DNA of 62,019 bases, counting the filler, from Globobulimina sp. (Eukaryota): the NCBI GenBank assembly GCA_003354225.1. It is 29 parts of 29 records of this genome, joined end to end, with 100 filler letters (N's around TTAATTAATTAA, not from the genome) between each part and the next. Parts side by side here need not be neighbours in the genome. Positions count along the whole stretch, not along the records: positions 53,560 to 55,599 come from PIVH01009507.1; 28 more parts are not named here. One strand, given 5' to 3'. The position numbers were made by a program, and so were the translations under genes. The notes under the pieces were generated by a model that saw only the letters and a list, made by a program, of their open reading frames with translations, was not told the DNA's origin and made no database searches. Every line of letters starts with the position of its first letter. The stretch's first letter is position 1. Positions 40,902 to 57,739 of the stretch are shown here, in pieces.

Positions 40902-41526
40902 TATTTCACTTTTTTTTTTCTTGTATTTGTAACTTTTACTTCTTTTGATATCGTAGACATTGTATTTTTATGATCAACAGCAATAAAATCATTCGCTATT
41001 AAATCAATAATTATGCATATTACGTTTCATTGTTTTTCATCTAATCATCTTTTCAAAGCGTAACACTGAGTAACTTCACTAAAACTTTTCTTTTGACATT
41101 TAAAGCATTAGGACCAAGATAAACGTGTCTGACAATACCGTATGGAAATTGGCAATGATAGCATACACAGGTTATTTTGGTTTATTGTTGAGCTCCACAT
41201 ATTGCTGTTATTATTATCCTCAATGTCGTCCAGCAACAGCTGTTATGCTTTCCCTGACGTTTGTAAAAATAATTGGACTCAAAAAAATGAATTGAGGAGT
41301 TTATGATGATGATTTTGCTCATGATCAACTTTTTTTAATCATTTGTGAATTGTTAGAGAAAAAGCTTAAGTAAAATCAAGGTTAATTAGGAAAAACTCTA
41401 TTTTTGAAGTTAATGACAACCTGAAATTGCCGCTAGGACTGATCGACCATTAGTTTGTCTTATTTGTTTTTACTGTTGTTGAGCTATTTTTTATATATTC
41501 TAATTCAGGTCTCGCAAAATCGCAAT

Positions 41527-42624
41527 ATGGCAAAAGCAATATTTTCATATTTTCAAGGACAATCCGGCGTCGATGCATCGGTATACTCGATGGAAGACTT
41601 AAAAATCGAGGATGCAGCTCCAATAATAAAGAAAACATGGCATGAATTAATGAAAGAGAAAGGCAATGTAGGTTCAACAATTTATGATTCCATATTAACA
41701 AAAGAGATAACAATGAGCAAATTATTTATGGAGACCGATTTGAAGCGGCAATCCACCGTTTTCATGGATATGATGGACAAAGTGATATGTTTTTTAGATG
41801 AGCCATCAACAATGGATGATAAGCTACAAACTTTAGGATTTGTCCACGTCGACAAATATCAAATAAAAGCAAAACATTTTAAACATTTTCGTTCGGCATT
41901 CATGAAAGCGATCAAAAGATATTTGCCATGGACAGATCGCCGCGAATCATCATGGCAATGGTTTTGGAGCAAAATAATATCCGCAATGAGTCTCGCCACA
42001 CAAGAAAAACAAGCAAATTATTATCCGATAATCAATGAATATAATGGCCAGCAACTAACAAAAGAAGAACTTATTCAATTTTCGCAATGTATACATTCTA
42101 CGTTTGATACGACGCTTACTACGGATCCTAAAAAATTTGCGTCGGATTTTTATACAAATTTAATAAATGAACAACCAGATATTGCCCGATTGTTTGATGA
42201 TAAACATACCTCATTCGAAAGACAATCGACTCGATTTATTGCTATGCTAAATCATGCAATCAAATCATTAGATGATGTGAGTACATTTGGAAAGAGATTG
42301 GAGGTTTTATCCATTGAACACGTCGAGTATGGCGTAAAAATACCTATGTTACAATCATTTGGTGATATACTTATCGGACAAGTAAAACAATTAAATATAG
42401 AGTTATATCAACAACAAGAACAAGAAAAAGAAAAAGAAGAAAATCCGGAGAAAAATAGTGATCTTACTATGCTTAAAATACCTAAATGGACTCCAATGCA
42501 CGACAAAGCTTGGAATTGGTTTTGGAGGGTTGTTGTTGGTGTAATGACGCCAGGGATGACTAAAAAAATAAATCTCAATAAAAGGAAAAGTGAAATGGCC
42601 AATCAAGACTTTAGCGCTATTTAG
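41527..42624 (+). CDS. Tandem two-domain 3/3 globin
   Basis: Domain 1: IY(B10), LF(CD1), RQ(E7), LGFVH(F8). Domain 2: FY, PDIARLF, RQ, LSIEH; W-containing H helices. Confidence 0.85.
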   Translation: MAKAIFSYFQGQSGVDASVYSMEDLKIEDAAPIIKKTWHELMKEKGNVGSTIYDSILTKEITMSKLFMETDLKRQSTVFMDMMDKVICFLDEPSTMDDKLQTLGFVHVDKYQIKAKHFKHFRSAFMKAIKRYLPWTDRRESSWQWFWSKIISAMSLATQEKQANYYPIINEYNGQQLTKEELIQFSQCIHSTFDTTLTTDPKKFASDFYTNLINEQPDIARLFDDKHTSFERQSTRFIAMLNHAIKSLDDVSTFGKRLEVLSIEHVEYGVKIPMLQSFGDILIGQVKQLNIELYQQQEQEKEKEENPEKNSDLTMLKIPKWTPMHDKAWNWFWRVVVGVMTPGMTKKINLNKRKSEMANQDFSAI

Positions 42625-53459: not shown

Positions 53460-53639
53460 NNNNNNNNNNNNNNNNNNNNNNNNNNNNNNNNNNNNNNNNN
53501 NNNTTAATTAATTAANNNNNNNNNNNNNNNNNNNNNNNNNNNNNNNNNNNNNNNNNNNNATGCAAATAACAACTTTTACATTTTTAAAAGTTTGCGCATG
53601 TCCGAATTATCACACAATGCAGAAACGTTTGTTTTTGAG

Positions 53640-54854
53640 TTACAGTTTGTTCGTATTATATTTTTTATTGTCAGCAGCTTTTCTTAGCAATGCCATTGCC
53701 ACAATATGCGGTGGGATATGATTTGCATCACTTGGCGGCAATAAAAAACATGGTATATTCAGTCCACACTCTTTAAATCTATCACCATAATAACACGGCG
53801 CCACATATTCATCCCCATGAAAATAAAATAAATCCGGTTTCTCATCAATTTGCTGCATTAACTGTTCGACATGAAACACAATTTTAGCATTATTTATTGT
53901 AAAATCCTTTCCATTGCTTTTACTCTCTTCACCCACACTCATCTCGACCTGCCTTACAATGTCAGCCATATCCTTTGTATACTTGTTATTATTCTCATTT
54001 GCTCTCTGCATCATACATTTTTTATTTGCAGCATGATGCCTACAAATGCACGAATATACACTGGTTCTCACTGCACAACAAAGCAACCACACAGCATGTG
54101 CTATTCCCGTTGATTCCACAATTAAACACACACCAAATGCTACATTCATGCCATATAAATTTAAAAATTCCACAGGATATGCGGCTGCTAACACCTGTGG
54201 AGTCAATTGAGCTATGGTTACAACTAAAATAACGCCCAGAAATCCAGAAAACATAAATGTATTCATCACCCATTCCGGCACCTCAATAATCCACACATCA
54301 AAGGTAGTAATCCGAGCACACACAAAGACCAACAAGACCACTAAAACCTGTCTGCCAATTAAGAAACGTTCGACATTACGGCCGCTGTTCTCCCATTTTA
54401 ACAGTTTGTGTGCGCGCGGGTAATATCGCCGAAAATGATAAGGATCCTCATGTGCCAACTCGACCACTGCGATCTGCAAACCTTCCAAGATTCCCAACGC
54501 AAGCAATGCCAAAACAAGTATTACATAAAGTGCCCAGTTTGGAAGGGATTTGGGAATTAAGGTCTCATGTTTCGTCATTGCATAAACCACTGAAAACACG
54601 CTAAGAATTAATAAGGCGGAGCCCAATATTAAACGTGTGATATAGAAACATTGTCCCAATCTGCTGGATGTATTTGGCAATAATGTAATTGCATCATCGC
54701 CGTGCGTTTCTAAATCAATTGACTTGCTATGTTCAATATGAACTTCGTTTGCCACTTTTATCGACACATTTGATGCATAGGAAGACGCTTTGCTCTTTGA
54801 TGGAGCTAATAACCTATCTGTTGAGATTGTTGCTGCGTTTGGATGTCGAGACAT
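53640..54854 (-). CDS. SIT-like (SIT-L) silicon transporter
   Basis: LEGLQIA (EGxQ) and FLIGRQ motifs, IAQLTPQVLAAAYP; about five TM helices with a single motif pair. Confidence 0.88.
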   Translation of the reverse strand: MSRHPNAATISTDRLLAPSKSKASSYASNVSIKVANEVHIEHSKSIDLETHGDDAITLLPNTSSRLGQCFYITRLILGSALLILSVFSVVYAMTKHETLIPKSLPNWALYVILVLALLALGILEGLQIAVVELAHEDPYHFRRYYPRAHKLLKWENSGRNVERFLIGRQVLVVLLVFVCARITTFDVWIIEVPEWVMNTFMFSGFLGVILVVTIAQLTPQVLAAAYPVEFLNLYGMNVAFGVCLIVESTGIAHAVWLLCCAVRTSVYSCICRHHAANKKCMMQRANENNNKYTKDMADIVRQVEMSVGEESKSNGKDFTINNAKIVFHVEQLMQQIDEKPDLFYFHGDEYVAPCYYGDRFKECGLNIPCFLLPPSDANHIPPHIVAMALLRKAADNKKYNTNKL

Positions 54855-54893
54855 AAGTAAGTAAGTCAGTACTTTTCATTGTAAAATCTTAGC

Positions 54894-55599
54894 TTAATAT
54901 TCCGCTTTAACTATGAATAAAGGAAATCCAGGAGGTACAGGATACATTTTCTGCACTGTTTCTGGCAAAAGTCCCATCATATCATCTCCTGATACAACAT
55001 CAATTGTGTTGAAGTTATATTTCTCAAAAAAAGGAATTATATCATCCGATTCCAATGTAAATTTCATTATTTCGCCTTTTTTTTCCAAATAATCTCTTAC
55101 CGTTTCATCTTCTACACTCTCCGTTGCCGCATAAATACTAAATACAGCAATGGAATTTCTCCCAGCAGTCTGTTGAATAAATCTAAATATTTTATCCACG
55201 GCTTTAGGCTGTAAATACATTAAAAGTCCCTCTAATTGAAATAATGTGGCAACATTTGAATTATACGGCGTTTCATCCATACAAAGTTTGTCTGAGCCCT
55301 CATTCAAATCACAAGGGACAAAGGTCAAATATGATGGTATATCATTCCATTCGAAATGCTGACATATGATCCCTTTCTTTGCTTGTTGTAAATTCGGCAA
55401 ATCCACCTCAAAAACACTGACATTATGTGCTGTAATGATATCTTTATATCGAATGGAGCGGGAATCAAAACCTGCCCCAATACTAATAATCTGTTTAATG
55501 CCACGTTGTTCCATTGCTTCAGTCCAAACACTGTCATAAAAGCCCGTCTTTGCCCCAACTATAGGCACAAATACGTCCATTGAATTTAATGTCACGAGT
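54894..55599 (-). CDS. LCM-family SAM-dependent methyltransferase (5'-partial)
   Basis: QIISIGAGFDSR, FEVDLP, VPCDL, EGLLMYL. Confidence 0.85.
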
Positions 55600-55699: not shown

Positions 55700-57739
55700 G
55701 CCACGATTACGTCGCTCATGGCCTCTATCTCGACGCTCATAGCCACGGTTATTACGCCTATCCGACCTCCGACCATTTCCATAGTCATATTTCTTATTTT
55801 TATTAACATCAAATCTTCATAAATATATTGAAAATCCATTATATTTTCATTATTTAATTCATTAATAAATCTCTTATAAAAATAAACAACATTATTTTTT
55901 TCTAATATCATATTTATATCATTTAATAATTGTATCCCATTAATTTTAATATTAAAATATCTACACACTAATTGACCGACATCTTGTGTGTGTTTTGAAC
56001 CTGTTCTGGTTCCCCAGAAATCATAGCAATCCACCAACGTTTTGCCATCAAACCGATATCCACAGTTTTTCAATTCAGTCACTGCCAAAGGAAGCTGCCT
56101 AAACGCCCACGTTAAGTCAGTCTTAGCTAAATAAAATCCTTTGCCCCATAATAAATAAAATACATAGCAATAATTGATCAGTTCCTTTACATGGAACAAT
56201 TTAATCCTTGCTTTATCATCACCGGTCAACATATTTATGGATGGATATCTCTCCGAACCTAAAGTGCCATCTCTGATTACTCGCCATTGTAAGACCTCCC
56301 CTGTGATGGGATCAGTCTCTTTCGGTCTTACAAACAGTGGAACATAACCATTCAACTCCGACATCCATCCAACTATTTTCCCTCTGCACATATCATTTGT
56401 CAATTCTTTGGCTATTGCCAATTTCGCGACTCTTCCTCCTGCATCATCCGCATATGTTTGTTGATTTAATATTGAATTATTTTTATTAGTTATCCCTAGC
56501 TGCCAACCAAACTTCAAATGATGATGCATAGCCTGTGAGAGCGCATAATATTTCCCATCACTATGCCGCTCAACAAAAGGTAGTATCTCTATGTACCACA
56601 CAGTACTATTTAATAATAATTTTGACTGTTTATATTTTGTTGTGCCATATGCTTGCCTGAAAGCAGCAATTGCCAACTTTTCTGTATCTTAATTTTATTT
56701 ATTTATTTATTTGCATTATTTTTTATTTTTGATTTGTTGTATTTTATGTGTATTTTATATTAATTCTATTTGATTTGTTGGCAATTCATTTCTTCACAAA
56801 AACTCAATTGGTTGAGAAAAATCACACTCCAGTTTTAACGTCACCACCTTAGGCCCGCTAGAGAGTCCCTTTACTGCATATAGACTTTCACAAAGTTTGC
56901 TATTGCATAAAGAGGCAAAATTATAACGTGAGACTGTGTCGCTACTCCTAACTACTACTTTTACTTTTAACTTAATTTAAGCTTTTTAAGCTTTTCTAGT
57001 GTGCAAAAACACAAACTCTTATCTCCAAAAGCAACAACAATTGCTTCGAGAGCTTGAAGAATAATGTTATCATTTTATATTGATATAATATGGAATACCA
57101 TGAATTCATTTGTCACCGCATATAGTCAGTCCAATACAGTCATTACATAATCAAAACATTTAATCAATAACAATTATAATACTCATATCATACAAATGCA
57201 TACAATCCATTCATACCATCATACAATACAACAATTGCTATCAATTACATTTAATAATGCACATATTGACCATATACAAATTAACATTATGACAGTAACA
57301 CTCTTAGTCCTTTGGTACGTCTATCGACCACCAAAATGCCTCTCCTGTGCACGCGGACAATCCTCCGTTCTGTGCATATTTGCTATGCCACACGTTTCAC
57401 AATAATGTGGATAGTAACAATTACGAAAATTATATTTATTATTACAACTCAGATGACTACGCGAATAAAATCTGCATGCTTCCATACCAAAATATTTATC
57501 TGTAATGAATGTTGATCCATTTTTATTTACATACATATCATTTCTACGACGCATATCGGAGTTATTATTCCCTCTCGATGTCATGTCTCTGCCTTCACTC
57601 TGTCTGTCTCGTCGATCATTGCCACGATTACGTCGCTCATGGCCTCTATCTCGACGCTCATAGCCACGGTTATTACGCCTATCCGACCTCCGACCATTTC
57701 CATAGTCATATTTCTTATTTTTATTAACATCAAATCTTC
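55700..57739 (-). mobile_element. DIRS/Ngaro-like retrotransposon fragment: gag C-terminus with knuckle (57737-57321) and N-terminal half of RT (56676 to ~55820); 119-bp terminal redundancy
   Basis: CETCGIANMHRTEDC; PLFVRPK..WRVIRD, SIN, LAKTDLTWAFRQLPL, DCYDFWGTRTG; 55700-55818 identical to 57621-57739. Confidence 0.7.

Follow-up and report, generated by a model that had tools for sequence, protein, structure and literature searches.

A single-core SIT-L of Globobulimina sp., a foraminiferal silicon transporter homologue with a conserved C-terminal domain

We find that a short contig of Globobulimina sp. encodes a new member of a known family, the SIT-Ls, in a lineage from which SIT-Ls are already on record. 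With good though not full confidence the protein is read as a foraminiferal Group 1 SIT-L that couples silicic acid transport to Na+ and is most like the Rosalina SIT-L / Ammonia SIT-L2 type. Its interest beyond the family record is modest, and lies in an apparently undescribed tail domain, in the reuse of this domain without the transporter core, and in a question of topology.

The SIT-L gene, its contig and its relatives

The window, meaning the whole stretch of 62,019 nucleotides that was analysed, consists of 29 unrelated contigs of about 2.04 kb each, separated by 100-nt spacers, and belongs to an assembly whose 48,370 contigs total 70.2 Mb. The N spacers include TTAATTAATTAA, and open reading frames or neighbourhoods that cross them are artefacts. 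The SIT-L gene lies entirely within one contig (positions 53560-55599; G000:C9507). Its reading frame of 404 amino acids is on the minus strand (53640..54854), as are all features described below, and runs from the ATG at 54854 to the stop at 53640 with no internal stop codon. Because the gene sits within a single contig of about 2 kb, its only true neighbour is an upstream methyltransferase of the LCM/TIGR00027 type (54894..55599; Pfam PF04072, E 3.1e-25), truncated at the contig end and ending 39 nt before the SIT-L ATG. A lateral origin of this methyltransferase is possible, since its 20 homologues are distant (27-46% identity, no close one) and the few that are named carry prokaryote-type labels.

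Contigs from all four public runs placed on the stretch cover parts of the SIT-L reading frame, and none of the four has a splice joint in it; none is on record as RNA, the labels of X6 and X7 being guesses. One contig of run X1 (54731-55201) bridges the methyltransferase and the SIT-L start, and since the assembly may itself derive from X1 this does not count as independent support. X6 contributes one contig, over 53611-54580, whose linker differs in length by a short in-frame stretch. Within the 39-nt spacer there is a short tandem run of AAGT (54855-54870), to which run X4 adds 15 letters. Elsewhere in the window, a reading frame at 55701-56688 (minus strand) resembles by eye, in its motifs, a fragment of a retrotransposon reverse transcriptase, and has no Pfam match at E<=0.01; two globin stretches occur in one protein at 41455-42624 (Pfam E 2.9e-22).

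Family membership is clear. PF03842 (Silic_transp), the Pfam silicon transporter model that the earlier note had proposed as a check, matches once with E 2.6e-28 and 99.1 bits (cut-off 26.8), far above chance, and the match joins residues 74-258 to profile positions 9-196 of 513, that is, to one half-SIT. The membrane core, delimited by Pfam and the structure model, spans residues 66-262 (54069..54659). It follows a soluble N-terminal region (residues 1-64; 54663..54854), presumably cytosolic, of which residues 1-43 are predicted to be disordered (pLDDT <50). As had been read from the DNA, EGLQ and GRQ each occur once, at residues 124-127 (E124-Q127; 54474..54485) and 167-169 (G167-Q169; 54348..54356). 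E124 is present in 51 of the 54 rows of our SIT-L alignment (A2) and GRQ is kept in 52, the remaining two being gapped. Section 8 of Marron 2016 (PMC5100055) characterises SIT-Ls by one EGXQ-GRQ pair and five hydrophobic segments, and further by xQxxxQx in segment 4, a basic residue between segments 2 and 3 and a Glu in segment 5. The Globobulimina protein has every one of these sequence features, including A-Q216-L-T-P-Q220-V, R147 and E247, and hydropathy gives it five segments, at about 66-95, 102-135, 160-192, 194-226 and 228-262. It is not a 10-TM SIT, which has two cores and two motif pairs: there is a single core, and the stop codon falls within the contig.

A search of 5.8 billion proteins, with 8,000 candidates scored, returned 17 proteins at E<=0.001, query included. 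Of the ten looked up, seven are named, all of them foraminiferal (Nonionella stella, Bolivina argentea, Ammonia sp. and Elphidium margaritaceum), and two are the Ammonia SIT-L1 and Elphidium SIT-L listed in Supplementary Table 2 of Marron 2016 (PMC5100055). Identity to the query over the core is 74% for Nonionella P0003, 65% for Elphidium SIT-L and 57% for Ammonia SIT-L1. In accordance, in a tree of 54 cores the query nests among foraminiferal SIT-Ls: UFBoot support is 99 for the query with Nonionella P0003, 90 for the clade that adds Ammonia SIT-L1 and Elphidium SIT-L, and 100 for foraminifera with Ciona. This tree (IQ-TREE, LG+G4, 193 columns) is midpoint-rooted only, contains no named haptophyte SIT-L, and omits 12 one-core rows and all but seven two-core proteins; an earlier tree set left out five near-duplicates or truncated sequences, all proteins with at least three cores, cores that cover fewer than 140 profile columns and roughly two in three of the two-core proteins. 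Branching with foraminiferal and metazoan SIT-Ls places the protein in Group 1, which Marron 2016 (PMC5100055) defines as foraminifera, metazoans and haptophytes. Pfam, homologues and tree thus agree with the earlier note on a SIT-L from a non-diatom host with foraminiferal affinity. The surprise expressed there was overstated: since the closest relatives include SIT-Ls of Marron 2016, the presence of SIT-Ls in foraminifera is already known and has been in print since 2016, and two of the top matches are those published sequences.

The query is closest to the foraminiferal Group 1 proteins of Marron 2016 (Ammonia SIT-L1 and SIT-L2, Elphidium, Rosalina) and to SITL clade I of Durak 2016 (PMC4742977), with which it shares the EGXQ-GRQ pair, xQxxxQx, R147 and E247. 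Its segment after helix 5 is closest by eye to the Rosalina and Ammonia SIT-L2 rows of Marron Fig. S1; from Ammonia SIT-L1 it differs in paralogue subclade and species, with no fundamental difference. CbSITL of Coccolithus braarudii (PMC10098502), from another lineage, is of the same family and group and serves as the functional model. The SITs of diatoms, choanoflagellates and haptophytes have the same core and motifs (PF03842), but as two fused cores. Proteins with three to six tandem cores, up to 1,592 aa, are also found among the matches listed (P0021-P0028, P0030, P0031); multi-core SITs occur in pennate diatoms. The supplement of Marron 2016 (PMC5100055) mentions doubtful triple-motif SITs in ciliates.

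This genome has a second SIT-L paralogue on another contig (L002:549-1720; G000:C11257), nearest to Nonionella P0011. Near locus position 790, close to the gene start, its frame is broken by what looks like the gain or loss of a single base, which is either a sequencing error or the mark of a pseudogene. An intron was considered as the cause of the break and is unsupported, as the break reads as a frameshift.

Predicted fold and topology of the core

The structure model of the full-length protein (54 sequences, mean pLDDT 79.7) points to a kinship with Mg2+ transporters. Its best matches are the membrane domains of CorC (7cfg; Z 12.2, rmsd 3.3, 150 residues aligned, model 105-272) and MtCorB (7m1u; Z 11.8, rmsd 3.2, 138 aligned), with the next family at Z 6.3, values to be read with the caution that the model is a prediction and that a common helix arrangement alone can give Z of about 13 in helical proteins. 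Foldseek ranks CorC/CorB entries first to fifth, at weak E-values from 0.03. The Pfam CNNM model matches 28 of 54 SIT-Ls at E<=0.1 (best 2.9e-7), and the query SIT-L has no match at that threshold. Profile-profile comparison of SIT-L with two CNNMs of the host aligns 23 columns at a probability of 18%, and PDB sequence searches with the query, the alignment A2 and the protein P0018 returned no relative. We conclude that the SIT-L core is predicted to adopt the DUF21 transmembrane fold of CNNM/CorB; in the model it is made of an extra first TM helix followed by a DUF21-like unit that comprises three TM helices, a helix pair on the cytosolic side and a juxtamembrane belt.

CorB itself forms homodimers; it has three TM helices, a pair of helices in the cytosol and a juxtamembrane helix that resembles a belt, and it binds Mg2+ through S21, S25, S71, G110 and E111 (PMC8242095). 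The model of the query resembles CNNM/CorB/CorC (7cfg, 7m1u, 7m1t) in the DUF21 membrane fold, the cytosolic helix pair and the belt helix, in a G-x-x-x-P kink in the last TM helix, and in a cytosolic domain that follows an acidic helical linker. It differs from them in the extra N-terminal TM helix, the replaced Mg2+ ligands and the lack of a CBS pair, for which SIT-L gave no Pfam match, and identity is 12-17%. AQLTPQ (residues 215-220; 54195..54212), the xQxxxQx motif, aligns with the G-E-x-x-P motif of CNNM, and Gln216 stands for its Glu. In a two-step sequence alignment through a host CNNM, made without superposition, the five CorB ligands, in the order given, fall on L120, E124, R168, A215 and Q216. 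Because these positions are replaced, the cation site for Mg2+ is not kept in SIT-L.

How many of the five hydrophobic segments cross the membrane? The earlier note had counted about five TM helices, and Marron 2016 (PMC5100055) and Durak 2016 (PMC4742977) describe five, with an inverted 5+5 topology for the two-core proteins. The count holds as far as hydropathy goes; fold and charge data suggest instead that the fifth segment is probably a juxtamembrane belt helix and not a TM helix. A check independent of the fold is given by Lys and Arg: in 50 of 50 proteins with one core, 71 of 71 N-halves and 69 of 71 C-halves they are denser in the EGXQ-GRQ loop (TM1-TM2) than in the pair of loops on the opposite side. 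A bias to the same side in both halves argues against an inverted repeat, which should flip one of them. Taken together, the predicted fold and the charge bias suggest four membrane helices plus a belt helix in a parallel dimer, and not an inverted repeat of five TM helices as in print. Against this, helix 5 is not clearly amphipathic, its hydrophobic moment (0.09-0.28) being nothing out of the ordinary, and part of the Lys/Arg bias could come from Arg residues conserved for function and not from topology. According to Ratcliffe 2022 (PMC10098502), Knight et al. 2022 modelled SITL as a homodimer similar to SITs. Our literature search for SIT together with CNNM/CorC found no relevant paper, and CNNM goes unmentioned in passages of PMC12016540, PMC12533330, PMC13403384 and PMC12978542; the kinship may be in print already, in the SIT structure modelling of Knight et al. 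2022.

The C-terminal tail and a core-less two-TM protein

The core is followed by a weakly conserved linker helix (residues 288-315; 53910..53993) and by the C-terminal tail domain (residues 316-404; 53643..53909), whose conserved part, 338-395, reads P..F...G...P.FLLPP....HIPPHIVA..LL. The soluble tail noted earlier does contain the sequence described, IPCFLLPPSDANHIPPHIVA; this is not the very end of the protein, as 18 residues follow. Nor is the tail "extra": it is standard in most eukaryotic SIT-Ls, among them those of Ciona, of a dinoflagellate and, already in print, of Ammonia and Elphidium, and its identity between the query and the latter two (Ammonia SIT-L1, Elphidium) is 45-52%. A tail profile was built from residues 338-395 of 13 close relatives, with a threshold of 15 bits (shuffled controls reach at most 3.7 bits). 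Among 162 proteins, mostly the best 150 of 1,151 matches to a profile that contains the tail, it detects the domain in 44 of 59 proteins with one core, in 5 of 88 with two and in none of 14 with at least three; when only proteins that extend 90 residues or more beyond their last core are counted, this becomes 44 of 47, 5 of 21 and 0 of 2. Training rows and near-duplicates are included in these counts and the search profile contains the tail, so that prevalence in one-core proteins is overstated. Two-core proteins whose N- and C-halves form separate clades (unnamed proteins of the same set, grouped by tree shape) carry it in 0 of 23 cases.

The domain is also present in Ciona intestinalis, in the dinoflagellate Biecheleria, and in metagenome loci whose cores resemble by eye the phaeodarian SIT-Ls of Marron Fig. 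S1 (PMC5100055). The metagenome loci with a tail number 23: in 13 a core is detectable, and in 10 there is none on the available stretch, perhaps through truncation or introns. Prokaryotic occurrences were considered and set down to chance: two of 30 motif matches pass tblastn (E 2e-4 to 3e-4), by the seed motif only and with no SIT core nearby.

Modelled alone (89 residues), the tail forms four helices and no strands at a mean pLDDT of 84, and is thus predicted to be a small helical domain. No known family matched it: searches against Atlas gave 0.89 at best, to unnamed short proteins; its alignment against PDB sequences gave a best E of 1.9, and fold searches a best Z of 4.0 and a best Foldseek E of 4.4, which does not imply that the fold is novel. 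A homodimer prediction for residues 290-404 (two copies, alignment unused) scored 0.00 with the fold uncertain, and is evidence neither way. The alignment published in Marron 2016 (PMC5100055) ends just past helix 5; the strings PPH and LLPP are absent from the searchable text of its supplement, one file and picture pages aside. We found no description of the tail domain in the text consulted of Marron 2016, Durak 2016 (PMC4742977) and Ratcliffe 2022 (PMC10098502).

We find the same tail in a protein that has no core. P0163, an intact protein of 208 aa (G000:C5249:1814-2440; L004), has two hydrophobic helices and a SIT-L tail, and neither EGXQ nor GRQ. Three full-length homologues at 54-61% identity, one from Bolivina argentea and two unnamed, were found among 190 candidates. 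Profile comparison aligns residues 79-207 of P0163 with SIT-L 288-397, that is, linker helix plus tail, at a probability of 99.3% over 117 columns; the similarity of the linker by itself is weak, three of four family members exceeding the best of 200 shuffles. Pfam gives the four proteins of this family nothing better than E 0.012, and Atlas has no match to the two-TM protein. A derivation of the two TM helices from SIT-L helices 1-2 was tried and rejected, with scores under those of shuffled controls and E>=1.9. A tail-less relative of about 117 aa (L006:1399-1836, minus strand; G000:C5149) has the same two-TM unit at 39% identity. We infer that in foraminifera the cytosolic module of linker and tail has been moved to a different membrane anchor.

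What does the tail do? From its position a regulatory role, as the earlier note had suggested, is plausible. It is nearly as probable as not that the tail, though conserved, only helps in folding or trafficking and has no part in regulation, and that the core-less protein is functionally unrelated to Si transport. Bacterial SIT-Ls stop soon after helix 5 (Marron Fig. S1, PMC5100055) and two-core SITs are mostly without the tail; transport is therefore probably possible without it, and both facts count for a mere appendage. Against this, the HIPPHIVA block is conserved across foraminifera, Ciona, a dinoflagellate and phaeodarian-like proteins, and within the two-TM family the tail is the best-conserved part.

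Function, alternatives and significance

CbSITL is a Na+-dependent Si transporter with a Km of 27-32 uM and possible dimer bands, and in oocytes it depletes external Si, that is, it works as uptake (PMC10098502). Homology to CbSITL suggests Si transport by the Globobulimina protein as well; in the literature consulted, the characterised SIT-L is the coccolithophore protein and we found no transport assay of a foraminiferal one. In the mechanism that we propose, two copies would stand next to each other and point the same way, as in CorB, each with four membrane helices and a belt helix and with both termini cytosolic. A central polar cavity would keep CorB geometry, with the Mg2+ ligands S21, S25, S71 and E111 of MtCorB replaced by L120, E124, R168 and Q216, and these residues together with Q127, Q169 and Q220 would be suited to uncharged Si(OH)4 along with a coupling Na+. 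Linker helix and tail would occupy the place of the acidic helical bundle and CBS pair of CorB, and probably serve assembly or regulation.

For what might a calcifying foraminiferan use silicon? The protein may have a part in test biomineralisation, as the earlier note had suggested. The likeliest role, which we advance tentatively and by analogy, would be low-rate uptake of Si as a micronutrient as in coccolithophores, where such uptake serves calcification (Durak 2016, PMC4742977). Benthic foraminifera live in sediment and feed on diatoms. It is possible, though somewhat less likely, that the protein serves Si export or compartment loading instead, clearing silicic acid that comes from digested diatom frustules or from Si-rich pore water, and not the building of the test. 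This diet and habitat speak for export, as do the proposal in Marron 2016 (PMC5100055) that detoxification was the original role of SITs and SIT-Ls and the link of the fold relatives CNNM/CorB to efflux (PMC8242095); the uptake by CbSITL in oocytes (PMC10098502) speaks against it.

The fold shared with CNNM/CorB, and the weak Pfam CNNM matches of its relatives, could also be taken to mean that this is a divergent CNNM/CorB-type transporter of Mg2+ or another cation that sets Mg/Ca at the calcification site. We hold this to be very improbable. At the place of the ligand Glu111 the alignment has Gln216, a Q in 52 of 54 rows, and at that of Ser71 it has Arg168 (52 of 54). There is no CBS pair, and the genome has separate true CNNMs, with seven matches over the Pfam cut-off (L009-L015); the two that were read have the G-E-I-I-P motif of the Mg2+ site, followed by a region that looks by eye like a CBS pair; replaced ligands and true CNNMs make a Mg2+ role unlikely. 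Slighter still is the chance that the gene was brought in as contamination by a diatom, some other prey or a symbiont. The fragmentation of the assembly (48,370 contigs), the mere 2 kb of the contig and the distant, partly prokaryotic-labelled homologues of the neighbouring methyltransferase lend it something. It is opposed by the single core in place of two, by the nesting within foraminiferal proteins, by the foraminiferal-type paralogue on a separate contig, and by a GC of 0.39 and GC3 of 0.36 that lie inside the spread of the 19 reading frames of the window (GC 0.29-0.45). Conceivably the contig comes from another foraminiferan present in the sample.

The reading that we prefer, a Group 1 SIT-L that transports silicic acid, can be extended to a broader one that we consider unlikely as a whole: eukaryotic SIT-Ls would be parallel dimers of the CNNM/CorB fold repurposed for silicon, in which an undescribed cytosolic module replaces the CBS pair, serving assembly or regulation, and was mostly lost when two cores fused, and foraminifera would have moved this entire module to a two-TM protein dedicated to Si transport as its regulator or as a decoy subunit. 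Should SIT cores prove to be parallel units of the CNNM/CorB type, the account by "duplication, inversion and fusion" needs no inversion, and the solved structures of CorB and CorC can serve as models of where Si and Na+ bind. As a record of occurrence the gene has little value, foraminiferal SIT-Ls being known since 2016. The CNNMs of this genome may be of interest for Mg/Ca control in foraminifera. The intact SIT-L gene is a usable construct for asking why calcifying foraminifera keep Si transporters, and the conserved cytosolic domain, together with a candidate partner that has no core, would be a first handle on the regulation of SIT-Ls.
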